The position numbers and the translations under genes are program-made. 64,000 bases of DNA from Desulfatiglandales bacterium (GTDB lineage Bacteria > Desulfobacterota > DSM-4660 > Desulfatiglandales > B25-G16): contig DATKZQ010000199.1 in NCBI GenBank assembly GCA_035527895.1, positions 944 through 64,943 on the forward strand, written 5' to 3'. The stretch's first letter is position 1; each line of letters starts with the position of its first letter. Below the pieces are notes generated by a model, which ran no database searches, was not told the DNA's origin, and worked only from the letters and a program-made list of their open reading frames with translations. Shown piece by piece: positions 42,664-63,389 of this stretch.

Positions 42664-42692
42664 TTGACAGACATGGTGAATATCCATAATGA
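42664..42692 (+). promoter_or_regulatory. Sigma-70-like promoter with an overlapping AT palindrome (possible IclR operator)
   Basis: TTGACA-17 nt-TAATGA. The imperfect palindrome ATAATGATATCATATTAT overlaps the -10 element. Confidence 0.35.
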
Positions 42693-42721
42693 TATCATAT
42701 TATAATACCAAGTCTTGTATT

Positions 42722-43498
42722 ATGGAACAATCACCACAGAAAATCAACGCTATCCAAAAGGCCCTGGCAGTCCTTGCATCCTTTGCCCCTTACAACCAGG
42801 AGATGGGCACCGTTGAAATCAGCCAGAAGCTCGGCTTCCATAAAGCCACGGTCTCGCGAATCCTGCTTACCTTAACAAAGTGTGCCTTTCTCGAGCAGGA
42901 CCCCCAAACAAAGAAATTCAAGCTCGGAGCCTCTATTATGACGCTCGGGCTAGCGATTAACCATTCTCTCAAAACCAATCTGGTCCAAATGGCCAGACCA
43001 TACATTGATGAGCTGAGAGATACCCTTAAAGAGACTACCGTGTTGGAAGTGCTTTCCGGAAAGAGCACCTTTATCGCTTATGTCGCCGAAGGGCCCCAAC
43101 GGGTGCGTATAGCAGGCACCGTTGGAGACAGACTGCCGGTCCATTGTGCAGCTGGGGCCAAGGCCATACTCGCTTTCTCAGCGCGTGAGGTGAGGGACGA
43201 CCTCCTAAGCCAGGCAATGCCGCGCCTGACACCCAACACCATCACACATCCAAAAGAGCTTCGACGTCAGTTGGAACTCTTTCGGAGCCAAGGTTTTTCG
43301 TTTGAGAATGAGGAGATTGACATCGGCATGAGCGCTGTTGGAGCACCGGTATTTAACCACGAAAAAAGGCCGGTGGCTGCTGTGGTGGTAGCGGGACCCT
43401 CCCAGCGGATGACGTGGGCGAGTGATTCGCCCATTGTCCCTCCCTTGAGGGAGACGGCTGCTAAGATCACAGCGCAACTTTATTATGACGTACAATAA
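42722..43498 (+). CDS. IclR-family transcriptional regulator
   Basis: N-terminal wHTH (ALAVLASF...MGTVEISQKLGFHKATVSRIL) and a C-terminal IclR effector domain. Start chosen at MEQSPQK. Confidence 0.8.
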   Translation: MEQSPQKINAIQKALAVLASFAPYNQEMGTVEISQKLGFHKATVSRILLTLTKCAFLEQDPQTKKFKLGASIMTLGLAINHSLKTNLVQMARPYIDELRDTLKETTVLEVLSGKSTFIAYVAEGPQRVRIAGTVGDRLPVHCAAGAKAILAFSAREVRDDLLSQAMPRLTPNTITHPKELRRQLELFRSQGFSFENEEIDIGMSAVGAPVFNHEKRPVAAVVVAGPSQRMTWASDSPIVPPLRETAAKITAQLYYDVQ

Positions 43499-43513
43499 AT
43501 AAGGAGGAATGGC

Positions 43514-44296
43514 ATGAATTCAAAGGAAAACGGGTTGGAGTTCTATGACCTCAGCAATGAGTTCGGGGACAAGGCCCCTCTGTGGCCTTACTTCGAAGAC
43601 GTAAAGATCGAACGCGTCCATTATCATGCAAAGTCGCGAGTGCTTTCTCAGAAGATTACCACGGTCATGCACTGCACCACTCACACCGACGCCCCTGCTC
43701 ACGTTGTTGAGGGGACCCCCTTTATCGATGAGGTTCCATTGTCGTCGTTTTTTGGCAAGGCAGTTATCGTCTCTATTCCTAAGCAGAAATGGGAGATCAT
43801 CACGCCTGATGATCTGGAAAAGGCCGAGCCCAAGATTCAGAAGGGAGACATCGTCATCGTGAATACCGGTTGGCATAAGTACTACTCAGATAGCCAAAAG
43901 TATTTCTGTTACTCTCCCGGATTCTACAAGGAGGCCGGTGACTGGTTTGTCAAAAAAGGCGTCAAGGGTGTTGGAAGCGACACCCAGGCCTTGGACCATC
44001 CATTGGGCACGGCCATAGGCCCTCATGGAACGGGGCCCCTTCAGCCGTGGATCCTTGAAGAATATAAGAAAGAGACCGGCCACGAGGTGATAGAAGATTT
44101 CCCACTTTGGGAACCTAATCACCGAGCCATCCTCTCAAACGGTATCGTCGGATTCGAGAACGTGGGAGGGGAGATCGATGAGGTTACGGGCAAGCGGGTA
44201 ACCCTGGCTGCCTTTCCATGGCGCTGGGTGAAAGGAGATGGCTGTATTGTCAGAATGGTCGCCATCGTGGATACAACGGGCAAGTATCGCCTATAA
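43514..44296 (+). CDS. Cyclase-family (kynurenine-formamidase-like) metal hydrolase; candidate dihydrophloroglucinol cyclohydrolase
   Basis: HCTTHTDAPAH matches the H-x-G-T-H-x-D-x-P-x-H cyclase-family motif. The functional assignment rests on context only. Confidence 0.65.
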   Translation: MNSKENGLEFYDLSNEFGDKAPLWPYFEDVKIERVHYHAKSRVLSQKITTVMHCTTHTDAPAHVVEGTPFIDEVPLSSFFGKAVIVSIPKQKWEIITPDDLEKAEPKIQKGDIVIVNTGWHKYYSDSQKYFCYSPGFYKEAGDWFVKKGVKGVGSDTQALDHPLGTAIGPHGTGPLQPWILEEYKKETGHEVIEDFPLWEPNHRAILSNGIVGFENVGGEIDEVTGKRVTLAAFPWRWVKGDGCIVRMVAIVDTTGKYRL

Positions 44297-44313
44297 CTTA
44301 CAGGAGGGTCATC

Positions 44314-44664
44314 ATGAAAGTTACGAGATTTAGCGAGTGCAAGAAGTATAGCCCGCCGCAACACGACATAACCATACACTCCATGCATTTACAACACAGG
44401 GACATGGGGTGCACTGCCCCTTATTGGGTTGGTTGTTCATACTATCTCCCCGGGTCTCGTGCCGAAATGTCGGCGACGCCTCTGGAGAAGGTTTACGTTG
44501 TGCTGGATGGAGAACTGACCATTGAATTTGAGGGTGGTGAGATCGTGAAGCTCGGGAAAATGGACTCTATATTCATCGATAAAGACGAAACGCGTGAGGT
44601 CCGAAACGAAACCAATGCAGTGGCAACCATGCTGGTGGCGATGCCCTACCCACCTGCAAAATAG
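44314..44664 (+). CDS. Cupin-domain protein
   Basis: Start at MKVTRF after an AGGAGG RBS. Cupin_2-like VYVVLDGELTIEFEGGE...DSIFIDKDETREVRN. Confidence 0.6.
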   Translation: MKVTRFSECKKYSPPQHDITIHSMHLQHRDMGCTAPYWVGCSYYLPGSRAEMSATPLEKVYVVLDGELTIEFEGGEIVKLGKMDSIFIDKDETREVRNETNAVATMLVAMPYPPAK

Positions 44665-44782
44665 AGTATGCACCCGTAACTCACTTCGGAAAGCAGGGGC
44701 ATCATGCCCTGCCCTTCAGCACTATGGGGTTATCAACCCATAGTGCTGACAGAACACACAATCATTGAGAGAGGATAGAGCC

Positions 44783-45556
44783 ATGAAAAAACCGTATTCA
44801 CTGTTCGACGTAAGCGGTAAGGTTGCACTCATCACCGGGGCTACCGGAGGCTTCGGTCATACAGCATCATTAGGGCTGGCACAAGCCGGTGCGAAGATTA
44901 TGGCCACCGGGCGAACCAAGGAAACCCTTAAACCCTTGGTAGATGAAATAACCAAAGCCGGCGGCGTAGCCGCCTATTCCCCTGGCTCTCCAATTGATCA
45001 TGGCGATGTAAAGCGAGTAGTCAAGGATACTGTCAATGAATTCGGGGGCATCGATATCTTAATTACTGCGGCAGGTGTTAACAAACCAAATCCCATTGTT
45101 GAACAGCCCCTGGAAGAATGGGATATGATCATGGGCGCCAATGTCAAAGGGACTTGGCTGTACTGCAAAGAGGTCGGGAAGGTAATGATCGAGCAAGGGA
45201 GGGGCGGTAAGGTGATCCTTTTGGGATCGGCGCGCGGCGAGCTGGGCATGGCCAACTATACCGGATACAGCCCATCCAAAGGTGCGGTCCATCTTTTAGC
45301 AAAATCACTGGGATGCGAATGGGGCCAGTACGGTATTAATGTCAACGCTATCGCGCCCACAGTATTTCGGACGGCCTTGACACAATGGATGTTTGACGAT
45401 GATGCGTTCTACAAGAACTTCTTGAGACGCATCCCCATCGGGAGGTTGGGAGAGCCGGAGGATTTTATTGGGACGGTTATTTATCTGTCTTCAAAGGCAT
45501 CCGACTTTTTGACCGGGGCCATTATTTGCGCAGACGGCGGTTACACCGCAGGGTAG
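44783..45556 (+). CDS. SDR-family oxidoreductase; candidate phloroglucinol reductase
   Basis: TGATGGFG cofactor motif, NAAG-like ITAAG, and catalytic Y-x3-K (YSPSK). The assignment to phloroglucinol reductase is by context only. Confidence 0.7.
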   Translation: MKKPYSLFDVSGKVALITGATGGFGHTASLGLAQAGAKIMATGRTKETLKPLVDEITKAGGVAAYSPGSPIDHGDVKRVVKDTVNEFGGIDILITAAGVNKPNPIVEQPLEEWDMIMGANVKGTWLYCKEVGKVMIEQGRGGKVILLGSARGELGMANYTGYSPSKGAVHLLAKSLGCEWGQYGINVNAIAPTVFRTALTQWMFDDDAFYKNFLRRIPIGRLGEPEDFIGTVIYLSSKASDFLTGAIICADGGYTAG

Positions 45557-45564
45557 GGGGGCAT

Positions 45565-46509
45565 ATGTCTAAAATAGAAAATATTGCCGTCATCGGTGCT
45601 GGGCTGATGGGACATGGGATAGCCCAGGTTTTCGCCTGTTCCGGTCATCCTGTATGGCTTGTTGATACTGACGAAGGTATACTGAAACAGGCCAAAGGAC
45701 AGGTCGCCAAGAACCTGAGTCAGATGGTTCAACACGGCATCAATTTCAAGGACGACGTCACCAAAATTGTTGAGCGGATCAGCACTACCACAAAGTCAGC
45801 TCCTGCATGCGAAGGGTGTGATTTCGTCATAGAGGCCGTTTACGAAAATCTGGAGCTGAAGCAGCAGGTCTTTGCCGATCTCGACAGGTTCTGTCAAGGC
45901 GATACCATCCTGTGCAGCAATACTTCGGTTATAGCAATCACGGAAATTGCCGAAGGTGCGACAAGAAGAGAACGCATTGTGGGAACCCACTGGTGGAATC
46001 CGCCATACCTGATTCCCCTCGTCGAGGTTGTTCGTGCTCGAGATACTGCGGACTGGTGTATCGACGCAACCTATGATCTTCTCAAGCGAGTTGGCAAGCA
46101 CCCGGTGCGTGTTAACAAGGACGTTCCCGGATTTGTCGGAAACAGGTTACAGCATGCCCTCTGGCGAGAGGCATTTGCAATTGTCGATGATGAAATCTGT
46201 GACCCTGCAACCGTTGACGAGGTTATCCGCAAGGGTTTTGGTCTGCGCCTGCCTACTCTTGGCCCGGTCGAAAACGCCGATATGGTTGGTCTTGACCTCA
46301 CCCTAGCCATACATGACTACATTTTGAAATACTTGAACGCCAGCCCAACTCCTTCCACTACCCTTAGATCACGGGTGGAGCACAAGGATTTAGGTTTCAA
46401 GACCGGGAAAGGCTTTCAGAACTGGTCTGAGGCGCAAATCACTGCATCCAGACAGAGATTAACGAACTATCTCATGAAGGTAATGGCTGAGGAGATGAAC
46501 AGGACCTAG
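45565..46509 (+). CDS. 3-hydroxyacyl-CoA-dehydrogenase-family NAD-dependent dehydrogenase; candidate 3-hydroxy-5-oxohexanoate dehydrogenase
   Basis: IAVIGAGLMGHGIAQVF Rossmann motif, ...NTS..., HWWNPP, GFVGNRL. It is paired with a BKACE gene, as in other beta-keto-acid cleavage pathways. Confidence 0.7.
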   Translation: MSKIENIAVIGAGLMGHGIAQVFACSGHPVWLVDTDEGILKQAKGQVAKNLSQMVQHGINFKDDVTKIVERISTTTKSAPACEGCDFVIEAVYENLELKQQVFADLDRFCQGDTILCSNTSVIAITEIAEGATRRERIVGTHWWNPPYLIPLVEVVRARDTADWCIDATYDLLKRVGKHPVRVNKDVPGFVGNRLQHALWREAFAIVDDEICDPATVDEVIRKGFGLRLPTLGPVENADMVGLDLTLAIHDYILKYLNASPTPSTTLRSRVEHKDLGFKTGKGFQNWSEAQITASRQRLTNYLMKVMAEEMNRT

Positions 46510-46600
46510 AGTTTTTTTCCGATAACTCAGGCTAATGGATTCTTGCCGTTCATCCCTTTCACATTGGACTATTAGGACTCCCATTGGTAAAGGAGACTCT

Positions 46601-47428
46601 ATGGAAAAACTGATTATAACTGTTGCACCAACCGGGGCGTGGCCTACAAAAAAGGATACACCATATGTACCGACACAGCCCAAGGAGATCGCTGATGAGG
46701 TCTATAACTGCTGGAAAGCAGGCGCCTCAATAGCGCACATCCACGTAAGAGAAGACGATGAATCGGCTTCGATGAACTTTGAAAAATTCAAGGAGACAGT
46801 GGGGCTGATTCGGGAAAAGAAGGATTGCGATATTATTCTTAACCTGACAACCTCCGGAGGCATAGGGTTAACCGATGAAGAACGTATGAGGCCCTTTATG
46901 GAACTCAAACCGGAAATGGCCTCCTTTGATGCCGGAACCATGAACTGGCAGCATAGAACGGTGTTCGAAAATAGGCCCGATTTCTTGGAGAAATTGGCCC
47001 GGACCCAGAAAGAACACAATGTAAAGCCTGAACTCGAAATATTCGATGCCGGCATGTTATATAACACCCTCTATCTGGTGGAAAAAGGCTTCTTGGAATC
47101 CCCCCTCCACTATCAATTTTGTCTGGGAGTCCCGGGAGGCACTGCTGCCACTGTTGAGAACTTCATGCACATGAAGAGCATACTTCCGGATGGGGCTACC
47201 TTTTCGGCCTTTGCCGTAGGACGAATGCATCTGAGCATTCTCTTTATGACAATCGTTACCGGTGGACACATGCGGGTAGGAATGGAAGATAATGTGTATA
47301 TGGCCAAGGGTGTGCCGGCCAAATCGAATGTGGAATTCGTTGACAGGGTGCAGCGGATCGCCAGGGAGTTTCAGCGGGAGATCGCAACGCCAGCCGAGGC
47401 CCGTAAGATACTGGGATTAAAAGACTAG
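46601..47428 (+). CDS. BKACE (DUF849) beta-keto-acid cleavage enzyme; candidate triacetate acetoacetate-lyase
   Basis: LIITVAPTGAW...P.T..EIA......AGASI.H.H.R matches the 3-keto-5-aminohexanoate cleavage enzyme family signature. Confidence 0.7.
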   Translation: MEKLIITVAPTGAWPTKKDTPYVPTQPKEIADEVYNCWKAGASIAHIHVREDDESASMNFEKFKETVGLIREKKDCDIILNLTTSGGIGLTDEERMRPFMELKPEMASFDAGTMNWQHRTVFENRPDFLEKLARTQKEHNVKPELEIFDAGMLYNTLYLVEKGFLESPLHYQFCLGVPGGTAATVENFMHMKSILPDGATFSAFAVGRMHLSILFMTIVTGGHMRVGMEDNVYMAKGVPAKSNVEFVDRVQRIAREFQREIATPAEARKILGLKD

Positions 47429-47587
47429 AAGCTGCTCGTACCCTTAAAGGCGTCATTCATAACATGAAATGAGGTATGGGTAGAAGGTTGGGAGGCTGCC
47501 TGGATAGTACCCTGAGTATACCAACAACCACTGTCATAATTAAAGCGAGGGCTTTATGAGACCTAAGAAAAATGGTTGGAGGTGAAG

Positions 47588-50500
47588 ATGAAATACGTTT
47601 TAGGCCGTCTGCTTCATAACGTTCTATTCCTTTTTTCCAAGACTTCTCGTCTGTCTTCTTTCGTGACAGTCACGGCCGATCAAGTTCTGACGTTCTTGTG
47701 TAGATCACGAACCCTCTCCAGGTACTTAGGTTCCCTAATCTTGTGGGTCGTGGCCCTTCTGATCAGGGTTTCAGCAATGCTACATCCCGCTTTTAAGGAA
47801 CGCCTCAGAGAAAAAAACTTTACCGCTCAGATCAAAACCAATGACCGTGCCTTGGCGAGATCCTACACCTTTGAAGACGGAAAGCTCATTTCCCGCCCAG
47901 GCATCCACCCCAACCCGGATGTGACCATTACCTACCGGAGTGCCGGTTTGGTCGTCAAGTTGGTCGTCCCTTGGAGGGATCAACTGGAACAGGTCAATGC
48001 CATGAAAAATTTTCAACTTGGCCTGGAAGGTCCTGATGAGTTAACCATGTGGTTCATGGAAACTCTGAGCCTTATGCTGTCGGCGGGTCTGGAGTATGGA
48101 ACGGCCGCTGGAAACGGAGTTAAAAGGTATACGAGCAACACCAACGGCGGGCCGGTCTTCGTGTACGTGAAGGACGGCAAGATCGTACGCATCACCCCCA
48201 TTGAATTCGATGAGAGTGACGCTCAGCCCTGGACCATTGAGGCCAGGGGGAAAAGCTTTACCCCTCCCCGCAGAACAACGGTCTCCCCCCATACGCTAGC
48301 CTGGAAATCGATGGTCTATTCACCGGACCGGCTGCTCTATCCCATGAAACGGATCGATTTCGACCCTAACGGCGAACGAAATTGCCAGAACAGGGGGATA
48401 TCCGGATATGAACGGGTCAGCTGGGATGAGGCAACGGATCTTGTTGCTAACGAGATCAAGCGAGTGAAAAGGGACTTTGGCCCAGGTGCCATTATGAATG
48501 GCAGTGGGTCTCACCATACCTGGGGTATTTTAGGCTACTGGTTGAGCGCAAGGCTCCGCTTTTTTAACTCTATCGGCTTTACGCCCGTCGTCCATAATCC
48601 CGACAGCTGGGAGGGGTGGTACTGGGGTGCCATGCATCACTGGGGTTACAGCATGCGTCTCGGCGCTCCTGAATCCTACGGCACCGTCGAGGACTCCCTC
48701 AAGAATTGCGAAATGGTGGTGTTCTGGTCCAGCGATCCGGAGGCAACGAGCGGGGTATACGGTGCATTTGAAGGGACCGTGCGCCGCCAATGGCTTAAGG
48801 AACTGGGAATCACAATGGTACATATCGATCCATTCTACAATCATACGGCGGCTTTGCTCGGCGGCAAGTGGTTGGCCCCCAGGCCGGCAACGGGCAATGC
48901 CCTGGCCCTTGCCATCGCCTATGTCTGGATCACCGAAGACCTCTATGACAAGGAATATGTGGCACAGCGGACCCTCGGGTTTGACAAATGGAAGGACTAT
49001 ATCCTGGGCAAGGAAGACGGCATGCCAAAAACGCCGGAGTGGCAGGAACAGGAGGCAGGCATCCCTGCAAAAGACGTCAGGGCTTTGGCTCGAGAGTGGG
49101 GAACAAAAAGGACCTACCTGGCTGCAGGAGGGATAACCGGTTTTGGCAGCGCCTGCCGGTGTGCAACCGGAAATGAGTGGGCCCGGTCAATGGTTTGCCT
49201 GATGGCCATGCAGGGCTTGGGGAAACCGGGCGTCAATATGGGGGGCATGCAGCAGGGGACTCCTGTGGACACCAGTTTCTTCTTTCCGGGCTATGCAGAG
49301 GGTGGACTATCCGGCGACATAGAGGGTACGGCGCTGGCCGTCAATATGTACCAGAGGATGCCTCAGCTCGCTACGGTAAATACCGTTTATCAGCGGGTCC
49401 CACGGCTGCGTATTCCCGAAGCGATCCTGGACGGCAGCACCTTTGGCTATCCCACCGACTCCAAGACTATTGAAGGCCAGTTCTTGAAGTTTGATTATCC
49501 TGCCCCAGGCAATGCGCCAATCAAGATGTACTACAAGTATGGGGGCTCTCATTTCGGCACCATGAGCGAGACAAACCGTTACGTCAAGGCGTACCGCTCC
49601 CCCAATCTGGAGTTTGCAGTGAATCAGTCCATCTGGTTTGAAGGCGAGGCCAAGTTTGCCGATATCCTCTTGCCTGCCTGTACCAGTTTCGAGCGCTGGG
49701 ATATCAGCGAATTCGCCAACTGCGGCGGCTATATACAGCACAGCTTCAACCAATGCAATCATCGGGTCATGGTTATGCAGCACAAGTGTATCGAGCCCTT
49801 AGGGGAGTCGAAGTCGGACTTCCAGATCTTCCTGGAGGTTGCCAAAAAGCTGGGGCTCGGGGCTCCCTTTTCCGAAGGGGTGACTGAATTAGACTGGTGT
49901 AAACGGCTGTTCGACGCCACCGATCTGCCCACGGTCATTTCATGGAAACAGTTCCTTAAGAAGGGCTACTACGTCGTCCCCTCTCCCAAGCAGGAGTTCA
50001 GGGATCCGGTATCCTTTCGATGGTACGCTGAAGACCGGCCCAAGGACACACCGGAGCTGGCACCCCTGCCGGCGGATTACACTGAACAATTCGGCAAGGG
50101 ACTCCAGACCCAATCGGGCAAGATAGAGTTCGAATGCTCGAGCCTGAAACGGTTTGACCCGAATGACCCGGAGCGACCCACCATGACCAAGTATATTCCC
50201 TCGTGGGAGGGTCACCATACTACCGAGCTCTACGAAAAGTACCCGCTCCAGTTGATTTCTCCCCATCCCCGGTTCAGCTTTCACACCATGGGGGATGCCA
50301 AGGACAGTGTCATTAACGATGTGAAAGACCACCGGGTGTTGATAGACGGGTACTACTACTGGATCGTGCGGATCAACTCCAAAGACGCCCAAGCGCGGGC
50401 CATCAGGGAGAACGACCTGGTCAAGGTCTTCAACGACCGGGGGGCGGTCATCTGCACCGCCCAGGTCACCGAACGGGTCCCGCCGGGAACGGTGCACTCG

Positions 50501-50677
50501 TATGAATCGTCTGCCATCTACGATCCAGTCGGAGAACCCGGTCATTCCGCCGACCGGGGCGGGTGCATCAACCAGTTGACCCCGAGCAGGATGATGATTA
50601 AACAATCCCACAGCATGGCCGCCAACTCCTGCCTCGTGGAGATCAGAACGTGGGAGGGAGAGGAGGGGATTGCATGA
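47588..50677 (+). CDS. Pyrogallol-phloroglucinol transhydroxylase large-subunit-like molybdopterin enzyme with an N-terminal TM plus SCP2-like extension
   Basis: From [20 protein letters not shown] onward it aligns along its length with the paralogue at 51964..54546 ([58 protein letters not shown]). The first ~165 aa have hydrophobic helices and FTAQIKT...YTFEDGKL...PDVTITY...[15 protein letters not shown] follows GGAGGTG. Confidence 0.8.
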
Positions 50678-51510
50678 AAAAGTGGAACCTCATCATCGAT
50701 ATCGAGAAATGCGAGGACTGCAACAACTGCTTTCTGTCCTGCAAGGATGAACACGTGGACAATGCGTTTCAAGGCTACACAGCCCCCCAGGTGAAACACG
50801 GCCACCGGTGGGTGAATATCATGCGCAAGGAGCGGGGCCAGTTCCCCCAGATCGATGTGGCCTATCTGCCCGTCTTCTGCATGCACTGTGACAACGCCCC
50901 GTGCATCACGGCAGCAAAGGATGGCGCCGTGTACAAGCGAGACGACGGAATCGTGATCATCGACCCGGTAAAGGCGCAGGGTCAAAAGCACCTGGTGGAT
51001 GCCTGCCCTTATGGTGCCATCTGGTGGAATGAGGAGCACACTCTCCCCCAGAAGTGCACCCTCTGTGCCCACCTGTTGGATCAGGGCTGGAAGGAGCCAC
51101 GGTGTGTACAGGCCTGCCCCACCGGGGCCTTACGCATCGTCAAGGTCGAGGATGGGGAGATGCAGGAAATAGTCAAATCCGAAACCCTTGAAATCCTCCA
51201 TCCGGAGTACAACACCAGACCCCGTGTCTACTACAAGAACCTCTTTCGGTATACCCACTGCTTCATCGCCGGAAGCGTTGCCGTTGAAAAAGACGGCGTC
51301 AGCGACTGTGCCCAGGATGCCGCCGTGTCCCTGATCAAGGACTCGGAGAAAAGACAGACCACAACCGATACCTTTGGGGATTTTAGATTCGATGGTCTTC
51401 CGGAGAACAGCGGCACGTACCGTGTGGAGATCACCTATGAGGACCGAACGATGAAGACCCTTGCGGTGGAGGTAGACAAGAGCGTGAGCCTGGGCACGGT
51501 GTGGGTGTAA
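50674..51510 (+). CDS. Transhydroxylase small-subunit-like 4Fe-4S protein with a C-terminal beta-sandwich domain
   Basis: Cys clusters [20 protein letters not shown] and CTLCAHL...CVQACP. The C-terminal ~90 aa resemble a carboxypeptidase-regulatory-type fold. ATGA overlap with the alpha gene. Confidence 0.8.
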
Positions 51511-51615
51511 GGATCCCTAAACAGAAACTTTCGTAACACTTTAGCTCTTTGAAAAGGTGGGGCTCCTGTCCATTTGCTGATGCCCGGTGGCTATTCGTAA
51601 CCGAACCCAGGGGAC

Positions 51616-51798
51616 CGAGCATGGAGATATCTTTTTTTGCTCTGCCCTCTAAACAAGGCCCCGTACAGGGCCGTTTCAAACCGGCACACCGCCCCATAAG
51701 CCTTAGCACTAAGGTTGCAGCCTGTGTGCGCCGTTTTGAAACGCCCACTGCTCTGAACGATGGGAGGACAGAGACAAAAAAAGATATCCCCATGCTCG
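51616..51798. repeat. 183-bp long imperfect palindrome (MITE-like or structured RNA) between the two transhydroxylase pairs
   Basis: CGAGCATGGAGATATCTTTTTTTGCTCTGCCCTC... at the left pairs with ...GAGGACAGAGACAAAAAAAGATATCCCCATGCTCG at the right. An inner pairing is CGTTTCAAACCGGCACAC / GTGCGCCGTTTTGAAACG. Confidence 0.7.
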
Positions 51799-51963
51799 TG
51801 TTAAGATTAATTTCAAAGAGGTAAAGTGTTACAAACTTCCAAATATCCTACACTTGGTGGGCTGGCACTGCAGGACATGCCGCCTGGTCGGCAAAAAAAA
51901 GGAGGCTTGATATGAACACGAGAACGCCTCTGAACAAATGCTCTATTGAATAGGGGATGGGAC

Positions 51964-54546
51964 ATGGGAAAGGTAGAAAAGCTAACCAATGGCACAACAG
52001 GCGGGCCTGTGTTTGTCTACGTTCAGGACGGCAGAATAATGCGCATCACCCCCATGGAATTCGACAAAAGCGATGCTCCCTCTTGGGTAATCGAAGCAAG
52101 GGGTAAAAGGTTCTCTCCACCTCGAAAGACCACTCTCGCTCCCTACTCATTTGCCTGGCGTTCCTTAGTCTACTCGCCCAAGAGACTGCTTCACCCTCTC
52201 AAGCGCGTCGATTTTGATCCTGGCGGAAAACGAAACTGTACCAAGAGAGGAGAATCAGGATACGAGCGAATCAGCTGGGACGAGGCCGCGGATATTGTCA
52301 CCTCCGAAATCAAACGAATTAAGCGGGAGTATGGCCCGGCTGCTATCTTGAGCACCGCAAGTTCTCACCATCTGTGGGGACACCTGGGCTACCGTCACAG
52401 CGCCTATTTTAGGTTCATGAACCTCGTAGGCTACACCTACGCGGATCATAATCCCGATAGCTGGGAGGGGTGGCACTGGGGAGGCATGCACCAATGGGGA
52501 TTTAGCCACCGGCTGGGCATTCCCGAGCAGTATGATCTGTTGGAGGACGCGCTCAAGCATGCAGAAATGATCGTATTCTGGTCGAGCGACCCTGAGACTA
52601 CCCATGGAATCTATTCTGCATTTGAAAGTACCTGTCGCCGTCGATGGCTAAAGGATTTGGGAGTCAAGATGGTTTTTATCGACCCGTTTTATAATCACAC
52701 GGCCGGCATGTATGCAGACAAATGGTTTGCCCCGAGACCGGATACTGGTAATGCCATGGCCTGTGCCATCGCATTTGTGTGGATAACGGAAGATCTTTAC
52801 GACAAAGCCTATGTTGAGAGCAGAACGATCGGTTTTGACATGTGGAAGGACTACATCCTGGGCAAGGAAGACGGCATACCCAAGACGCCTGAGTGGGCAG
52901 AAGAAGAAAGCACCATCCCTGCTAGAGAAATCAAAGCCCTGGCTAGAGAATGGGCCTCCAAGAAGACCATGCTGGCTGCAGGCGGCCTCGGAGGCTGGGG
53001 AGGTGCGTGTAGGTCCGCAACGGGAACAGATTGGGCCCGCCTTATGATCAGTTTGGCAGCAATGCAGGGCTTAGGAAAACCGGGCAGTAACATCTGGGGA
53101 ACAACCCAGGGAGCGCCCCACAACTCAGATTTTCTCTTTCCTGGCTATACCGAGGGAGGGATGTCTGGCGACGTGGACAACTCAGCAGCCGGTTTTCGTT
53201 GGGTCTACCGCATGCACAGAAAGCCCACCCGTTCGAATATTAACACCCCTATGGGCCAGCACATCCCCAGACTCAAGATCCCGGAATGCATTCTAGACGG
53301 TAAGTTCCAGTGGCGAGGAAAGGGATTCTGTGGTCAATCAATCGAGGCCCAGTTCCATAAATACAAATACCCGGCGGACGGGTATCCGGAGATTCAGATG
53401 TACTACCGATACGGTGGCTCTTTTATCGGCACCATGAATGAAACCAATCGGTATGTGAGGGCCTACAGGACCGAAAGACTGCCCTTTGCGGTAAACCAGT
53501 CCATCTGGTTTGAAGGTGAGGCCAAGTTTGCCGACATCATTCTGCCCGCATGCACCAACTTTGAGCGGTGGGATATTAGCGAATTCGCCGGCTGTCATGG
53601 ATATATTCCTGATAGCACCTCTCAGGTCAACCATAGGGTCATCACCTTGCAGAAAAAATGCATTGAACCATTGGGAGAATCGAAATCAGATTACGAGATC
53701 TTCACCTTCTTGGCTAAGAAATTAGGGTTCTCAGAGGTTTACACCGAAGGCGGCCTGAGCGAACTCGATTGGGCGAAGAGGATGTTTGACGCAAGCGATC
53801 TGCCCGATTATATCTCGTGGGATGATTTTTTCGAGAAGGGCTATTTTGTGGTTCCCATGCCGGATGACTACAAGGCAACGCCGGCCCTGAGATGGTTTGC
53901 CGAGGACAGGAAAAGGGACACACCAGACTGGGGACCTCATCCCGAATGCCAGGAAGAATTCGGTAAGGGCCTTCAGACAACCTCAGGGCTTATCGAGTTT
54001 GAGTCTTCCAGCCTCAGGAAATTCGACCCAGGCGATGAGGAGCGGCCCCTCATACCCAAATACATCCCCTCCTGGGAGGGGCACCATACCGCCAGGCTCT
54101 ACAGCAAGTACCCGTTGCAGTTGATATCTCCCCATCCCCGGTTCAGCTTCCACACCATGGGTGATGCCAAGGAGAGCTGGGTAAATGAGATTAAGGACCA
54201 TCGGGTCTTAAAGGAAGACGGCTATTACTACTGGATCATACGGATTAACTCGAAGGATGCCAAAGAGCGGGGAATCAAAGAGAACGATCTGGTCAAGGTA
54301 TTCAATGACCGGGGCGCTGTGATCTGCGCAGCCCAGGTCACCGAACGGGTTCCTCCTGGCACGGTTCACTCCTATGAGTCCAGTGCAGACTATGATCCTA
54401 TGGGTAAACCGGGAGAATCAACGGATCGAAATGGATGTATCAATCTGCTAACGCCAAGCCGTTACATAACGAAAAATTCCTGCGGCCAGGCACCGAACTC
54501 ATGTCTCGTACAAATAGAAAAATGGAAGGGGGAGAGCAGAAAATGA
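51964..54546 (+). CDS. Pyrogallol-phloroglucinol transhydroxylase large subunit-like molybdopterin enzyme (AthL-like, canonical length)
   Basis: [30 protein letters not shown]..., [44 protein letters not shown]. This closely matches my recollection of the Pelobacter acidigallici alpha subunit. Confidence 0.85.
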   Translation: MGKVEKLTNGTTGGPVFVYVQDGRIMRITPMEFDKSDAPSWVIEARGKRFSPPRKTTLAPYSFAWRSLVYSPKRLLHPLKRVDFDPGGKRNCTKRGESGYERISWDEAADIVTSEIKRIKREYGPAAILSTASSHHLWGHLGYRHSAYFRFMNLVGYTYADHNPDSWEGWHWGGMHQWGFSHRLGIPEQYDLLEDALKHAEMIVFWSSDPETTHGIYSAFESTCRRRWLKDLGVKMVFIDPFYNHTAGMYADKWFAPRPDTGNAMACAIAFVWITEDLYDKAYVESRTIGFDMWKDYILGKEDGIPKTPEWAEEESTIPAREIKALAREWASKKTMLAAGGLGGWGGACRSATGTDWARLMISLAAMQGLGKPGSNIWGTTQGAPHNSDFLFPGYTEGGMSGDVDNSAAGFRWVYRMHRKPTRSNINTPMGQHIPRLKIPECILDGKFQWRGKGFCGQSIEAQFHKYKYPADGYPEIQMYYRYGGSFIGTMNETNRYVRAYRTERLPFAVNQSIWFEGEAKFADIILPACTNFERWDISEFAGCHGYIPDSTSQVNHRVITLQKKCIEPLGESKSDYEIFTFLAKKLGFSEVYTEGGLSELDWAKRMFDASDLPDYISWDDFFEKGYFVVPMPDDYKATPALRWFAEDRKRDTPDWGPHPECQEEFGKGLQTTSGLIEFESSSLRKFDPGDEERPLIPKYIPSWEGHHTARLYSKYPLQLISPHPRFSFHTMGDAKESWVNEIKDHRVLKEDGYYYWIIRINSKDAKERGIKENDLVKVFNDRGAVICAAQVTERVPPGTVHSYESSADYDPMGKPGESTDRNGCINLLTPSRYITKNSCGQAPNSCLVQIEKWKGESRK

Positions 54547-55379
54547 AAAAGTGGAATCTGGTCATCGATATAGCAAAATGTCACGATTGCAATAACTGTT
54601 TTCTCTCCTGTAAGGATGAATACGTGGGTAATGATTTCCCGCCTTTCTCCGTGCCCCAACCCAACCATGGCCACCGATGGATGAATATCATGCGCAAAGA
54701 GAGGGGCCAATACCCTAAGGTGGACGTTGCCTATCTGCCCATCCCGTGCATGCACTGCGATGATGCCCCGTGTATCAAAAAATCAAAAGACGGGACAGTG
54801 TATAAAAGAGATGACGGCATCGTCATTATTGACCCGGAAAAGGCAAAAGGCCAGAAGGATATCCTTGCTACCTGTCCCTATGGTGCTATCTGGTGGAACG
54901 AGGAGAAGGCGGTGCCGCAAAAGTGCACACTGTGTGCCCATCTGCTCGATGAGGGGTGGAAAGAGCCCCGGTGTGTTCAGGCCTGTCCCACCGGGGCCCT
55001 CCGCATTGTTCATGTCGAGGACGCTGAGATGCAGCGAATCATCGAATCTGAGAATCTTGAGGTCCTGCATCCCGAGTATAAGACAAGGCCCCGTGTATGT
55101 TACAAGAATCTGTACCGCTACACCACCTGTCTCATTGCGGGCAGTGTGGCCATAAGGGATACAGATGAGTGTGCCGAGGGGGCTGCAGTATCACTAAACA
55201 AGGGCTCAAAGAAGACAATCGCAGAGGCCGTGACTAATAACTATGGGGACTTCAAATTCGATGGTCTCGATGAGGATGGTGGCGCCTACAGCCTCGACAT
55301 CTCTTACAAAGACCGGCCAAAGAAGACCATTAAGTTAGAGCTCAAGACCAGTGTTAATGTGGGGACCATTCTTCTGTAG
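54543..55379 (+). CDS. Transhydroxylase small subunit-like 4Fe-4S protein (BthL-like)
   Basis: Paralogue of 50674..51510 (MKKWNL(V/I)[17 protein letters not shown]...). ATGA overlap with the alpha gene. Confidence 0.85.
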   Translation: MKKWNLVIDIAKCHDCNNCFLSCKDEYVGNDFPPFSVPQPNHGHRWMNIMRKERGQYPKVDVAYLPIPCMHCDDAPCIKKSKDGTVYKRDDGIVIIDPEKAKGQKDILATCPYGAIWWNEEKAVPQKCTLCAHLLDEGWKEPRCVQACPTGALRIVHVEDAEMQRIIESENLEVLHPEYKTRPRVCYKNLYRYTTCLIAGSVAIRDTDECAEGAAVSLNKGSKKTIAEAVTNNYGDFKFDGLDEDGGAYSLDISYKDRPKKTIKLELKTSVNVGTILL

Positions 55380-55652: not shown

Positions 55653-56351
55653 CTAACATCTCCTCACCAGCTCGTGAAGATATTCCATATCAATCTTGAC
55701 AAGTCCATCGAGAATCAGCAAAAAACCTCGATAGAAATCTGTCCACGCATCTTTTTGTGCCTGGGAACAGAACTCCCCAACCCAGCTTCCCAGGTGTTCT
55801 GTGAGAAACTGTTCTTCAGCGGCGACCGTTCTACTCACATCAACTGCAGATGCCCACTGTTCCTGCTCACGTCGACATAGATTTCTCATAAAATCGAGCT
55901 CAACGCACAGGTAGTCCGCAGTCTCGAGAACTGTTTCATCTGGCAACAAGCCAGCCTTTCTATAGAATTTTTTGACTTCAAGAACCGACGCCCCTCTCCC
56001 TTTCCCGTACCTGTACACTCCCTCGTAGGGAGGCCTGAGGTTCGTATTGCTCGTTCCCCTGAGGATTCTGGTTCTGTCCACAGACAACTCAGCGAGAACC
56101 TCTTCATCGGGCTTGGTTCCAACAGCAGCGCAATATGACTTGACATGGTCAACGCCGGATTTGAATCGTGATCTGTCCCATTCGTAGAAGCTATCGAGTA
56201 ATTCATCAAGGCCATTGCCCTTTATCCGAATCAGGAGATCTTCATCCGGAAGGCTGCTGAAGACCCCCACGAGCGAACCGTACGCCTCGGCCCTCCTTTC
56301 GGCCACGTGTGCCATTGTTTCCCTATCCTTAAACGGCTTCTTTCCGGGCAT
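55653..56351 (-). CDS. TorD/DmsD-family molybdoenzyme chaperone
   Basis: LRPPYEGVY...ADYLCVELDFMRNL is the typical TorD-like motif. It is the last gene of the Mo-enzyme operon. Confidence 0.65.
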   Translation of the reverse strand: MPGKKPFKDRETMAHVAERRAEAYGSLVGVFSSLPDEDLLIRIKGNGLDELLDSFYEWDRSRFKSGVDHVKSYCAAVGTKPDEEVLAELSVDRTRILRGTSNTNLRPPYEGVYRYGKGRGASVLEVKKFYRKAGLLPDETVLETADYLCVELDFMRNLCRREQEQWASAVDVSRTVAAEEQFLTEHLGSWVGEFCSQAQKDAWTDFYRGFLLILDGLVKIDMEYLHELVRRC

Positions 56352-56352
56352 C

Positions 56353-57393
56353 CTATCCCCCTCCCACCAGCGTCTTCAGGTAGATGATTCCCGAACTTAA
56401 CCACACGCATGCTGCCAAACTGCCGAGGACCAGCATCCACTCTGCCGCGGTTGGTTTATAGACAGGCTTCTCATCGAATTGGCTGTAAGGGAACGGCACG
56501 GTTGGACTCATCTGGTACTGCCTCATCACGTGAGACTTCTCCAGAAAAACGGCCACAAGGATGAGAACCGAGGCAAGGGCCGGAAGAAACGTATTCTGGG
56601 GACTGAGAATCTGGGTCGCTATGAGGATCAGGAGGATGAACGTATCCAAGAAGAGAATCTTCCTGTCAACCTCGCTCCCCGTACTGGTCAGAGATGCAAT
56701 ATATGATCCGGCGATGGGAATCAGTGCGAGGATCGTCAGGATGAGAAGAATCCCGGCCAGATTGCTTTCTTTCATCCCCGTTGCCAGGGCGATCAGGGTC
56801 ACCAGGGCCATTCCGCCCCAGAGGCTCTGGGCCAAGGTATCAAGACCAAGAAAGGGTTGGGATCTGAATCCTGCTCCCACCCTCGATAGGAAAAAGAGCG
56901 TGTGTATCATCACATAGGCCAGTGCCGCAATGAGGCACAAAACGGACCATACGGTCGCAAGCAGCCCGCCATTGTGTATGATCCCAGTGAGAAAGATCAG
57001 GTTTAACACACCGCACAACGAGAGCATGAAGAAATCCCAGGTCATGGGTGACGCGAAATTTTTACCGGTCAAGATCTTCATGCCCCGAAAGGGCTTCCCC
57101 AGATCAGCACCGATCAAGGCCCCTGCGCATATAAGGCAGCTCAGTGATACTGCTGCTCCAATTTCTACGAGACGCCGAACTGCCTCTATCTCAAAGAGCG
57201 TGGCCACTGCCACAAACACGAGGATGCCGCCAGCCAGGGCCGATAGGTAAAAGAATCCTTGTATATAGAGGCCCCAGTTGAAGGTGTCGTGAAGGGCTGT
57301 CGTTGTCAGCCCCCACCGCAGCTGCTTGAGAAATACAAGCCCAGCTATCACGGAGAGTAAAACCGTTACCGTAATCAGTATCCAATACAGCAT
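56353..57393 (-). CDS. NrfD/PsrC-family integral membrane quinone-interacting subunit
   Basis: About 8-10 TM helices, positioned after the FeS subunit. Start chosen at MLYWILI after a GAGGAGGG RBS; the track ORF extends to 57477. Confidence 0.7.
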   Translation of the reverse strand: MLYWILITVTVLLSVIAGLVFLKQLRWGLTTTALHDTFNWGLYIQGFFYLSALAGGILVFVAVATLFEIEAVRRLVEIGAAVSLSCLICAGALIGADLGKPFRGMKILTGKNFASPMTWDFFMLSLCGVLNLIFLTGIIHNGGLLATVWSVLCLIAALAYVMIHTLFFLSRVGAGFRSQPFLGLDTLAQSLWGGMALVTLIALATGMKESNLAGILLILTILALIPIAGSYIASLTSTGSEVDRKILFLDTFILLILIATQILSPQNTFLPALASVLILVAVFLEKSHVMRQYQMSPTVPFPYSQFDEKPVYKPTAAEWMLVLGSLAACVWLSSGIIYLKTLVGGG

Positions 57394-57403
57394 ATAGCCC
57401 TCC

Positions 57404-58009
57404 TCAGCCCTTAACGTAATAGACCGAAGGTTGCGTGCCAAGTTCCTCCCGAAATCGGGTGCCCCTGTGATCGGCAATCAGCCGAGAGACCTCGCTCTCC
57501 GGATCATCCAGATCCCCAAAATATCGCGCCTGCGCTGGACATGCCACCACGCAGGCGGGCAATTGTCCTTCCTCCAGTCTCTGGAGGCAGAAATCACACT
57601 TGACCACGGTCCCCTTCTCAAAGTCCTTCTGTTTGAGGATTTCATAGGGTGTTGGCACGTGACCCGGGTAGTAATTCCTGATGTCCCAGAGAAACTGCCT
57701 GCTCTCGTACGGGCATGCCACCACGCAGGCCCTGCACCCGATACACTTGTCCTGGTCTATGAGCACAATTCCATCCTCACGCTTATACGTAGCACCTGTC
57801 GGGCAGACCTTGAGACATGCCGGATCCTGACAGTGCATGCAAAGGATAGGCAAGAATTTCATCTTTGCAGTCGGATATTTTCCAACCTCATATTTCTTGA
57901 CCTTATTATACAACACCCCTGCGGGTGTTCCATGTTCCGCTCGGCAGGCGACGGTACAGGTACCACATCCTACACAGCGCGAGAGGTCGATTACCATCGC
58001 GTATCTCAT
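57404..58009 (-). CDS. 4Fe-4S ferredoxin-type subunit (PsrB/DmsB-like)
   Basis: Four Cys groups: CVGCGTCTVAC, CMHCQDPAC..CP, CIGCRACVVACP, CDFC...C..CP. ATGA overlap with the catalytic subunit gene. Confidence 0.85.
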   Translation of the reverse strand: MRYAMVIDLSRCVGCGTCTVACRAEHGTPAGVLYNKVKKYEVGKYPTAKMKFLPILCMHCQDPACLKVCPTGATYKREDGIVLIDQDKCIGCRACVVACPYESRQFLWDIRNYYPGHVPTPYEILKQKDFEKGTVVKCDFCLQRLEEGQLPACVVACPAQARYFGDLDDPESEVSRLIADHRGTRFREELGTQPSVYYVKG

Positions 58010-60687: not shown

Positions 60688-61062
60688 CAATCGCATCCTC
60701 CTATGCACATGTAGAGCCACATCCTCCCTCTCCCCTTGCACCATTTCCACTGATGGTCTCATTGGAGATGAAAGGTGGAGGGCGGGAGGAAGTAGAATAT
60801 TCTTGGGTCTATGTTCCTAGACGAAAAAGAGCTAAGAATTATTACAATTAACTGATTTCAAAATAACTATCCCTTTCCAGATGTCAATCCAGAAAGCACC
60901 CCGGCGGCCTTGTATTCCCATGCCTTTGAGGGCAAGCGGTACCGCAGTTGCAGGGACGACAAAAAGATCTTACCTTGTCGGTGCAATCGGAGCGAAACCA
61001 CCGTACTGTTTCGCCACCAACGCCTTTGCAGCCCCCCACTCGCAAATGGCAACCGCCAGCCT

Positions 61063-62857: not shown

Positions 62858-62864
62858 AGCTGAC

Positions 62865-63389
62865 TTATCCCTTTTCTGTCTCTTTCTCCGGGGTTACATC
62901 TCTAAACTTCAGGGCAGCATCGCACAGGAACGTAACGACCAGTAAAAAAGACCCGAACACCATGACAACATAGATGTATGCATAGGGCGCGTTAAGCATG
63001 GTGGGTGATGTCCACTTCTCCTTGAAGGCATACCAGGTCATCTCCGAGGTCTCCCAGAGGAGCACGAAGCTGAAGATCATGGCAAATATGGCAGTGGCAA
63101 GGTTAATAATACGGATTGATTTGTCATTGAATCGATCCACCAGGAAGGTAACCCGAATATGCATCCCTTCTTGTAAGGCATAGGCGGTCCCCAGGAAGAT
63201 AATGTAGAGAAAAAGATATGTTGTTATCTCCGTAACCCAGATGCTCGGCCTATTAAAGAAATACCTGAGGATTACGTCCACGAAGATAGAAAAGGTTACG
63301 AATAGGAGGACTAAACCTGATAACGTCGCACATATAACGTTTAGCTTCTTGATCTTATCGTACACGGAGGAAAGGTTGCTTGTTCTCAT
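62865..63389 (-). CDS. TRAP transporter small permease (DctQ family), second copy
   Basis: 174 aa with 4 TM helices, RYFFNRPSIWVTEITTYLF, immediately upstream of dctM. Confidence 0.75.
   Translation of the reverse strand: MRTSNLSSVYDKIKKLNVICATLSGLVLLFVTFSIFVDVILRYFFNRPSIWVTEITTYLFLYIIFLGTAYALQEGMHIRVTFLVDRFNDKSIRIINLATAIFAMIFSFVLLWETSEMTWYAFKEKWTSPTMLNAPYAYIYVVMVFGSFLLVVTFLCDAALKFRDVTPEKETEKG

Follow-up and report, generated by a model that had tools for sequence, protein, structure and literature searches.

An N-terminal extension fused in frame to a transhydroxylase-like subunit

We analysed a stretch of 64,000 nucleotides, hereafter the window, from a Desulfatiglandales bacterium (contig DATKZQ010000199.1, positions 944 to 64,943), and concentrated on alpha1, a gene for a molybdenum (Mo) enzyme subunit related to AthL, the large subunit of the transhydroxylase AthLS of Pelobacter acidigallici. 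Ahead of its AthL-like core alpha1 encodes an additional N-terminal part, the extension, which is absent from alpha2, a second AthL-like gene lying downstream. Coordinates are those of the window, and residue numbers are those of alpha1 except where AthL numbering is indicated. The gene and its start comprise the following features.

47578-47582 (+): Shine-Dalgarno sequence GGAGG, with a 5-nt spacer to the ATG at 47588, read from the sequence
47588-47707 (+): lineage-specific N-terminal segment, residues 1-40, with two predicted helices (block-mean confidence, pLDDT, 52-88 in AlphaFold2, AF2)
47708-48082 (+): predicted SCP2-fold domain, residues 41-165 (AF2, Foldseek, hhalign against human SCP2)
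47726-47782 (+): hydrophobic stretch, residues 47-65, part of the predicted SCP2 helix A
47858-47860 (+): codon of Arg91, the sole invariant residue of the domain in an alignment of 78 sequences (A3), found in fused and stand-alone forms
48083-48148 (+): linker, residues 166-187, of lower AF2 confidence, with a conserved G-x-G-V-x-R-Y motif that enters the AthL-like core
48149-50677 (+): AthL-like core for molybdenum-bis(pyranopterin guanine dinucleotide) (Mo-bisPGD), of the type called A1 below, with the stop codon (Pfam; 55.7% identity to 4v4c_A)

Alpha1 (47588-50677, +) is a single uninterrupted frame of 1029 amino acids from its ATG, and the other two forward frames contain 11 and 7 stop codons across the extension. 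Residues 64 to 194 contain ten in-frame start candidates. For nine of them no Shine-Dalgarno match is present, and the tenth, a TTG at residue 121, has a match of only 4 nt. When PDB sequences were searched with phmmer, residues 4-871 of P. acidigallici AthL (4v4c_A) aligned to residues 178-1026 of alpha1 (E=0, 1115.7 bits). Because this alignment begins at residue 178, the extension is about 177 residues long. Pfam domains were found in the core, namely AhtL-like_1st at 188-242 (1e-33), Molybdopterin at 248-754 (9e-28) and Molydop_binding at 887-1015 (3e-16). Residues 1-181, in contrast, matched nothing in Pfam-A or NCBIfam except a sub-threshold PKD, and scans of 47200-48300 for Rfam families (such as the Moco riboswitch), promoters and terminators yielded nothing relevant.

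A preliminary description of this DNA had counted about 165 extra residues before the point where alpha1 and alpha2 start to align, which is close enough to our figure, and the peptides that it quoted are present. It had also reported neither a stop codon nor an internal start signal at the junction, and indeed there is one open frame with no strong Shine-Dalgarno sequence at any of the ten candidates. That the Pelobacter protein has no such domain is borne out by the alignment of its residue 4 to residue 178 of alpha1.

The fusion is conserved well beyond this genome, and to a degree that far exceeds chance. A word-indexed search with residues 1-185 returned 15 proteins, 45-65% identical, in which the extension runs into the AhtL-like first domain. 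A profile built from the extension only (alignment A2) matched 695 clusters, formed at 50% identity, at E<=1e-3; of these, 386 reached E<=1e-10 and 76 reached E<=1e-30. We then surveyed loci in one genome per species (GTDB), where 157 contained a relative of the extension and 80 were fetched; in all 67 of the 67 fetched loci that were not cut by a contig end, the extension was joined in frame to another 962-1029 residues. The best 120 full-length database matches measure 970-1030 amino acids, the one exception being a protein of 846 amino acids from a 2.7-kb contig. They go under the names of 'molybdopterin-dependent oxidoreductase', 'pyrogallol hydroxytransferase large subunit' or 'TMAO reductase', and carry no N-terminal Pfam domain. 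Closest to alpha1 are five relatives (L001, L002, P0166, P0167 and P0192), the only ones to keep its first 40 residues; they have the same start, and in comparisons among the closest relatives the 177 codons of the extension show 15-16 synonymous and 18-19 non-synonymous differences.

The extension is a real, translated and in-frame part of alpha1. Since the fusion is conserved and the closest relatives share the same start, we consider a false start excluded for practical purposes, and likewise the missed stop or frameshift that the preliminary description had envisaged. An artefact of this sort, or a chance open stretch of non-coding sequence, might draw on the later start that PGAP chose in Paraburkholderia sp. 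PGU19 and on a few broken database copies. Yet the broken copies are accounted for by an apparent insertion sequence (IS), by multiple frameshifts and, in an assembly of 9x depth, by a Trp codon that reads TGA. Together with conservation at the protein level across phyla, the invariably fused complete loci, the strong Shine-Dalgarno sequence serving the ATG at 47588 and a confident AF2 fold, this effectively refutes the artefact.

The copies in question deserve a brief account. RefSeq places the start of the PGU19 gene (L165, 10094-12982) about 30 codons into the SCP2 domain and annotates a 'hypothetical protein' on the other strand, across the true start. We attribute this mis-annotated start site to the lack of a model for the domain. 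In Sinorhizobium terangae pCB3126_1 (L163, 6088-6492 and 8001-10544) an insert of about 1.5 kb near the domain boundary disrupts the copy; it resembles an IS element, its translated tail being transposase-like by eye, not by domain scan. In another copy (L166, 5001-5369 and 5385-7958) the conserved Trp codon of the linker is replaced by TGA (…TTVG*KAGTDMGNG…), with an ATG 16 nt downstream; this reflects either an error of the 9x assembly or a rare natural separation of the SCP2 protein from the AthL-like core. L168 has several frameshifts and L167 is a remnant. In the comparison of fused with split genes in other genomes, as proposed in the preliminary description, we found among the recovered loci no convincing case of a natural split into a separate SCP2 gene and a core, and the split copies look damaged.

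The extension is predicted to adopt an SCP2 fold

To obtain a structural model of the extension, we ran AF2 with the 78-sequence alignment A3, which gave a mean pLDDT of 86.9 and a pTM of 0.77. A deep alignment was required, as the single sequence of the extension reached a pLDDT of 39.6. The model contains helices at 41-65 (helix A), 67-73, 119-126, 132-140 and 150-165 (the C-terminal helix) and strands at 78-84, 90-96, 99-104, 112-116 and 144-147. This order agrees with that of the SCP2 fold, with its N-terminal helices, five-stranded sheet and C-terminal helix. When the model was compared with PDB structures in Foldseek, the best 36 matches were all SCP2-fold domains, with probabilities of 0.99-1.00 and E values down to 8e-6. 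They include Pisa1, SdsA1, YjcS, UbiJ-SCP2 (2e-5), AF1534 and TT1886 as well as insect, rabbit, human and yeast sterol carrier proteins. Alignment of A3 with human SCP2 by hhalign (the query being identical to 1qnd_A at 123/123 residues) showed the expected strand-by-strand register, at E 0.0027 and with a probability of only 11%.

On the strength of the model, the structural matches and this register, residues ~41-165 very probably adopt an SCP2 fold, and the preliminary designation of the extension as 'SCP2-like' is confirmed at the level of the fold. Primary sequence is less telling. Alpha1 itself has no match above the curated threshold to Pfam SCP2 (PF02036) or Alkyl_sulf_C, and stand-alone relatives of the extension match Pfam SCP2 below threshold over nearly the whole profile (E 0.004-0.04; 15-18 bits with a cutoff of 21.3). 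Judged by sequence, the extension is a new SCP2 subfamily for which Pfam and NCBIfam hold no model. A search of PDB sequences with the extension profile produced a fasciclin as its sole match (E 0.029), which we rejected as spurious.

The subfamily includes members without any Mo enzyme attached. Stand-alone homologues of about 120 amino acids are encoded by separate genes (P0144-P0146, P0150, P0161 and P0162), and N-terminal fusions to NAD_binding_2 enzymes of the beta-hydroxyacid dehydrogenase type also occur (P0114, and P0118 in L172). The subfamily thus behaves as a mobile module that is not confined to Mo enzymes. The neighbourhood of P0162 (L169, 5001-5372, on a 40-kb contig) was uninformative.

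Besides Arg91, fused and stand-alone forms have in common Leu52, Leu73, Asp86, Gly90, Gly98, Ser102, Gly105, Asp111, Ala138, Gly148 and Trp155/Phe156. Because such residues are shared by the fused, the stand-alone and the dehydrogenase-fused forms, the module appears to carry an intrinsic function that travels with it. The invariance of Arg91 and the conservation of Asp86 suggest that the ligand may bear a polar or anionic head group, unlike a plain lipid. Four other residues, Gln81, Lys140, Phe142 and Asp150, are kept in fused forms only and are candidates for an interface toward the Mo core.

A hydrophobic helix without a conserved membrane anchor

On a simplified biological scale that does not weight positions, residues 47-65 sum to -0.01 kcal/mol in hydrophobicity; their Kyte-Doolittle mean is 2.24, and no other segment of the 1029-residue protein is comparable. 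Across the 78 sequences the equivalent helix has a median of +7.75 kcal/mol and is amphipathic (e.g. FSIILFGLEKIMKYAARKYP). Among the 120 closest homologues it is clearly amphipathic in 84 and intermediate in 18, and in the remaining 18 it is as hydrophobic as in alpha1. The AF2 model packs this helix within the SCP2 fold, with block-mean pLDDT values of 95-96 over residues 41-70. The net charge is +6 for residues 1-46 and +2 after the helix. By the positive-inside rule, a membrane-spanning helix with these flanks would be oriented N-in/C-out and would place both the SCP2 domain and the Mo-bisPGD and iron-sulfur (Fe-S) enzyme outside the cell, and alpha1 has no twin-arginine motif. A signal peptide at residues 39-69 was considered and rejected, because the helix there corresponds by homology to SCP2 helix A throughout the relatives and a twin-arginine motif is lacking.

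From the homologues and the model taken together, helix 47-65 is not a conserved transmembrane anchor in the family. The preliminary description had proposed an N-terminal transmembrane segment that tethers the enzyme to the membrane. Its hydrophobic stretch is there, but the anchor is not supported, given that the stretch is helix A of the SCP2 fold, is amphipathic in most homologues, and is flanked by charges of the wrong distribution. A weaker association may nevertheless exist. Residues 3-22 form an amphipathic helix with a hydrophobic moment of about 0.5, which makes a peripheral, in-plane contact with the membrane plausible in this sub-lineage, and helix 47-65 together with residues 1-40 may provide it.

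The extension marks a paralogous class of AthL-like enzymes

Alpha2 (51964-54546) is collinear with AthL from residue 1 (1299.7 bits, 63.2% identity to 4v4c_A), and alpha1 and alpha2 are 65.2% identical to each other. We used the two proteins to type AthL-like open reading frames of at least 820 amino acids, those scoring higher against the alpha1 core being called A1 and those scoring higher against alpha2 being called A2. The typed loci came from one set of genome contigs seeded with the extension and one set of metagenome contigs seeded with alpha2. The extension was present in all 84 A1-type genes (84/84) and in none of the 64 A2-type genes (0/64).

The two types also differ in the pocket of the core, for which the AthL reference sequence was taken from its printed alignment. 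The roles of His144, Asp174, Ser175 (the Mo ligand), Tyr404, Arg153, His154 and Trp354 (AthL numbering, as in the rest of this paragraph) are presumably those assigned with the AthL structure of 2004. Both types keep His144, Asp174, Ser175 and Tyr404 as well as Tyr152, Trp176 and Tyr560. Within 85 A1-type sequences, His144, Ser175 and Tyr404 occur in 85/85 and Asp174 in 83/85, and alpha1 has all four. Alpha2 and the A2 type retain Arg153, His154 and Trp354. In A1-type sequences, by contrast, position 153 is Tyr or Trp (83/85), position 154 Leu or Ile (84/85), position 354 Phe, His or Leu (78/85), and position 157, a Tyr in AthL, is variously occupied, mostly by Arg, His or Ala. Alpha1 itself shows the substitutions Arg153 to Trp, His154 to Leu, Trp354 to Phe and Tyr157 to Arg. 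At positions 153, 154 and 354 its clade reads Trp-Leu-Phe, and most of a distant clade from proteobacteria and Rhodospirillales reads Tyr-Leu/Ile-His.

These residues indicate that the machinery for Mo-mediated hydroxyl chemistry is intact and that the A1 pocket is systematically different and less basic. Since neither its pocket residues nor its N-terminus are those of AthL, we do not class alpha1 as a strict pyrogallol-phloroglucinol transhydroxylase; in this locus, alpha2 is the enzyme to which that name applies in the strict sense. We hold with high confidence that the A1 type is a distinct paralogous subfamily, with the fusion as its signature, that coexists with the canonical AthL type. 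The preliminary description had spoken of a variant of the enzyme family. This is correct as far as the fused architecture is concerned, but not in the sense of a one-off, as the fusion defines a large subfamily.

Genomes with the fusion belong to Desulfobacterota, Dehalococcoidia, Bacillota, Acidobacteriota, marine Rhodospirillales, and Beta- and Alphaproteobacteria. A1-type genes come from anoxic sediments, from the subsurface (Dehalococcoidia), from the sea (Rhodospirillales) and from soil (proteobacteria), and cultured carriers include Burkholderia stagnalis, Paraburkholderia, Ensifer canadensis, Cupriavidus oxalaticus and Salipiger abyssi. Marine Rhodospirillales genomes may hold three or more extension-bearing paralogs each, as in one metagenome-assembled genome from the Arabian Sea (L047, L022 and L069) and in SI053_bin63 (L058, L061 and L066). 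This suggests a substrate-diversified family of the water column, unconnected to phloroglucinol genes. The small cupin encoded upstream of alpha1 (117 amino acids) recurs beside A1-type genes of marine Rhodospirillales too, at loci without the remaining phloroglucinol-pathway genes.

Genomic setting

Alpha1 lies between a set of catabolic genes and the canonical enzyme pair, all on the same strand.

42689-47428 (+): phloroglucinol-pathway genes, encoding IclR, a DPGC-like cyclase, a cupin, a PGR-like SDR, a TfD-like 3-hydroxyacyl-CoA dehydrogenase and a TAL-like BKACE (Pfam)
50674-51510 (+): beta1, with Fe-S dicluster domains and a CarboxypepD_reg-like C-terminal beta-sandwich (Fer4_11 2e-26, CarboxypepD_reg 3e-7)
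51964-55379 (+): alpha2/beta2, a canonical A2-type pair without the extension, in tandem with the first pair (alignment to 4v4c_A)

The genes at 42689-47428, upstream of both pairs, form a complete-looking set for anaerobic phloroglucinol degradation. Enzymes of the same families in Clostridium scatologenes are dihydrophloroglucinol cyclohydrolase, phloroglucinol reductase, (S)-3-hydroxy-5-oxohexanoate dehydrogenase and triacetate acetoacetate-lyase (PMC10470551). Such pathway genes adjoin A1-type genes without A2 in L001-L004, L008 and L012, and A2-type genes without A1 in L098, L099, L107, L128 and others; they adjoin an A1 and A2 tandem in the locus described here and in L085, L089, L093, L096, L111, L130 and L136. 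A beta gene follows the fused alpha gene in 60/71 A1-seeded loci holding a matched core. In both alpha/beta pairs of the window the genes meet in an ATGA overlap of start and stop (50674-50677 and 54543-54546), which suggests translational coupling, and a gap of about 450 bp (51511-51963) separates beta1 from alpha2.

In cultured proteobacteria the fused enzyme is encoded on megaplasmids or chromids. We examined the neighbourhoods in five hosts (Burkholderia stagnalis, Paraburkholderia sp. PGU19, Ensifer canadensis, Salipiger abyssi, and Sinorhizobium with its broken copy). A gene of the fumarylacetoacetate hydrolase (FAH) family and one for an outer-membrane channel of the OmpW or FadL type, which serves hydrophobic compounds, were found nearby in 5/5, and genes for VOC-family, TetR and acyl-CoA synthetase proteins in most. 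This context points to a hydrophobic aromatic substrate for these proteobacterial copies.

Beyond the second pair, the window contains a divergent gene set for a membrane-bound Mo-oxidoreductase, 55653-60762 (-) and 61556-63389 (-). It encodes a TorD-like chaperone, an NrfD-like anchor, a 4Fe-4S subunit and a Psr/Phs-like catalytic subunit of 918 amino acids with an Fe4S4 domain, and is followed by a TRAP transporter (DctQ/DctM). In L081 and L127, alpha2beta2 is likewise followed by genes of the TorD-like and NrfD-like kinds. The divergent oxidoreductase could be another polyphenol-transforming enzyme.

A possible role for the SCP2 module

SCP2 domains that are fused to alkylsulfatases, to peroxisomal thiolase or to MFE-2, or that act within the Ubi metabolon, bind ligands and present them. 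By analogy, we propose that the SCP2 module of alpha1 serves as a built-in pocket for a poorly soluble or reactive (labile) aromatic compound, either the substrate or possibly the co-substrate that donates the hydroxyl group. The module would capture this small molecule and hand it over to the Mo site. In this genome the product would most likely be phloroglucinol, or a precursor that alpha2beta2 would finish, and it would be consumed by the products of the PGR, DPGC, TfD and TAL genes directly upstream. Brune and colleagues reportedly described in 1992 sequential transhydroxylations in the fermentation of hydroxyhydroquinone by Pelobacter massiliensis, and a tandem of two paralogs would fit such a scheme. 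We give roughly even odds to this reading, in which the module captures and presents a ligand on a paralogous transhydroxylase or hydroxylase that feeds the adjacent phloroglucinol pathway. The ligand shuttling proposed in the preliminary description is likewise putative. Several observations weigh against our reading. The simple trihydroxybenzenes expected for the phloroglucinol pathway dissolve in water and would hardly require a carrier of the lipid type; conserved polar Arg91, Asp86 and Lys140 are unusual for a plain lipid pocket; the gene context of hydrophobic uptake accompanies only the proteobacterial megaplasmid copies and was not seen in other loci; and standard predictors would probably call helix 47-65 transmembrane.

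The last point leads to the possibility that helix 47-65 and the helices preceding it are a true transmembrane tether to the cytoplasmic membrane, from whose bilayer the SCP2 domain would shuttle its ligand. The near-zero hydrophobicity sum and the high Kyte-Doolittle value would suit a membrane-spanning helix, the amphipathic residues 3-22 could accompany it, the related resorcinol hydroxylase activity of Azoarcus anaerobius is reportedly membrane-associated, and the 18 of the 120 close homologues with an equally hydrophobic helix also have an extra N-terminal segment. Most of those homologues, however, have an amphipathic helix instead, the family median is +7.75 kcal/mol, and the model packs the helix into the SCP2 fold with high confidence. 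The orientation predicted from the charges is incompatible with a Mo-bisPGD/Fe-S enzyme that lacks a twin-arginine signal, and no membrane subunit accompanies the alpha1/beta1 pair. We therefore consider a true transmembrane anchor improbable. A different link to the membrane would arise if the SCP2 domain bound an isoprenoid quinone, as UbiJ and UbiT do, and so connected the Fe-S chain of beta, which is otherwise idle, with the quinone pool. In that case the A1 type would carry out net hydroxylation or dehydroxylation and not redox-neutral transhydroxylation. UbiJ-SCP2 is among the best fold matches (6h6p, 6h6o and 6h6n; E 2e-5 to 8e-5), no other electron-transfer partner is encoded beside the pairs, and the A1 pocket differs from that of the transhydroxylase. 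Against this, the similarity to UbiJ and UbiT is limited to the fold and does not extend to sequence, the SCP2 domains of alkylsulfatases score slightly better than UbiJ, and conserved Arg91 and Asp86 are not obviously related to quinones. The domain sits, moreover, on the N-terminus of alpha. Quinone binding with net hydroxylation is in our judgement an outside chance.

A broader form of this idea, in which the module holds either a membrane quinone or a labile tetrahydroxybenzene and thereby makes the enzyme a self-sufficient (possibly quinone-coupled) hydroxylase at the membrane surface, seems to us similarly unlikely, although it would have consequences of some reach: it would provide a function for the orphan Fe-S chain of the family and would explain how hydroxylase activities of the resorcinol type can be membrane-associated without a membrane subunit. 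The module might, finally, bind nothing at all and have a purely structural role in docking, in oligomerisation, or as an intramolecular chaperone for insertion of Mo-bisPGD. The four residues kept in fused forms only are what one expects of an interdomain interface, and the plus-strand operon has no TorD-like chaperone gene within it. Yet canonical AthL matures without such a domain, SCP2 folds are generally ligand binders wherever they have been studied, and the residues common to stand-alone homologues and dehydrogenase fusions argue for a function that moves with the module. A role without ligand is thus doubtful, and capture and presentation of an aromatic compound on alpha1 is the reading that we prefer.

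What the module binds matters beyond this locus. To our knowledge, AthLS of Pelobacter is the only enzyme of the family with a solved structure, and it serves as the annotation template for all its relatives. A large share of the sequences called 'pyrogallol hydroxytransferase large subunit' or 'molybdopterin-dependent oxidoreductase' belongs to a distinct class of paralogs, distinguished by the additional SCP2-fold domain and a changed pocket and often situated beside the anaerobic phloroglucinol pathway. That pathway, defined recently, is a key funnel for the carbon of tannins and flavonoids. Identifying the ligand of the domain would define a second entry route into this funnel and correct a systematic annotation error, and might also explain the Fe-S chain of the family and the supply of its co-substrate. 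Experiments to this end are feasible, because cultured and tractable hosts carry the fused enzyme.

Comparison with known systems

The authors of the preliminary description had not seen such an architecture described, and a full-text search of the literature for SCP2 combined with an AthL-like core likewise found no description, which is not proof of absence. The fusion is apparently undescribed.

Alpha1 falls in the RhL/PgtL branch of the DMSO-reductase superfamily (PMC10100899), as does the resorcinol hydroxylase RhLS of Azoarcus (Aromatoleum) anaerobium. RhLS differs in its context, which is a pathway through hydroxyhydroquinone and hydroxybenzoquinone and not through phloroglucinol. Darley and colleagues are said to have reported in 2007 that the resorcinol hydroxylase activity of Azoarcus anaerobius is membrane-associated, with no membrane subunit known. 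A homologue search with a profile of the proteobacterial extensions returned only short fragments and no entry from Aromatoleum or Thauera. Two loci that we considered as resorcinol clusters, L054 and L040, were rejected on inspection.

For the extension, UbiJ and UbiT are instructive counterparts. The isoprenoid lipids that they bind have aromatic head groups and are offered to enzymes at the surface of the membrane. UbiJ-SCP2 (6H6N, 6H6O and 6H6P) shares with the extension the SCP2 fold as well as an N-terminal hydrophobic or amphipathic helix (E 2e-5 to 8e-5). Unlike the extension, however, UbiJ and UbiT are accessory proteins that are not fused to a redox enzyme, and no sequence similarity is detectable. 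The alkylsulfatases SdsA1 (2CFU), Pisa1 (2YHE/4AXH) and YjcS (4PDX) gave the best structural matches (E 8e-6 to 7e-4; root-mean-square deviation about 2.7-3.2 A over about 90 residues), and in them, too, the SCP2 domain is fused to a catalytic domain, for which it recruits hydrophobic substrates. Their fusion differs in being C-terminal and in involving a hydrolase of the metallo-beta-lactamase fold, again with no detectable similarity to the extension in sequence.

The closest relative of the enzyme as a whole is AthL/AthS of Pelobacter acidigallici (PDB 4V4C-4V4E). The reaction of canonical AthLS (EC 1.97.1.2) is a redox-neutral transfer of a hydroxyl group from 1,2,3,5-tetrahydroxybenzene to pyrogallol. 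Alpha1 has the same three domains of the Mo subunit, with a core 55.7% identical, and keeps Ser175, Asp174, His144 and Tyr404 (AthL numbering). In both systems a gene for an Fe-S beta subunit with a C-terminal beta-sandwich lies directly downstream, and the genes are linked to the phloroglucinol pathway. The AthL large subunit, however, has about 875 amino acids and begins with its AhtL-like first domain, to which alpha1 adds 177 N-terminal residues and alpha2 none. Alpha1 stands in a separate clade of paralogs, and the true counterpart of AthL in this locus is alpha2.

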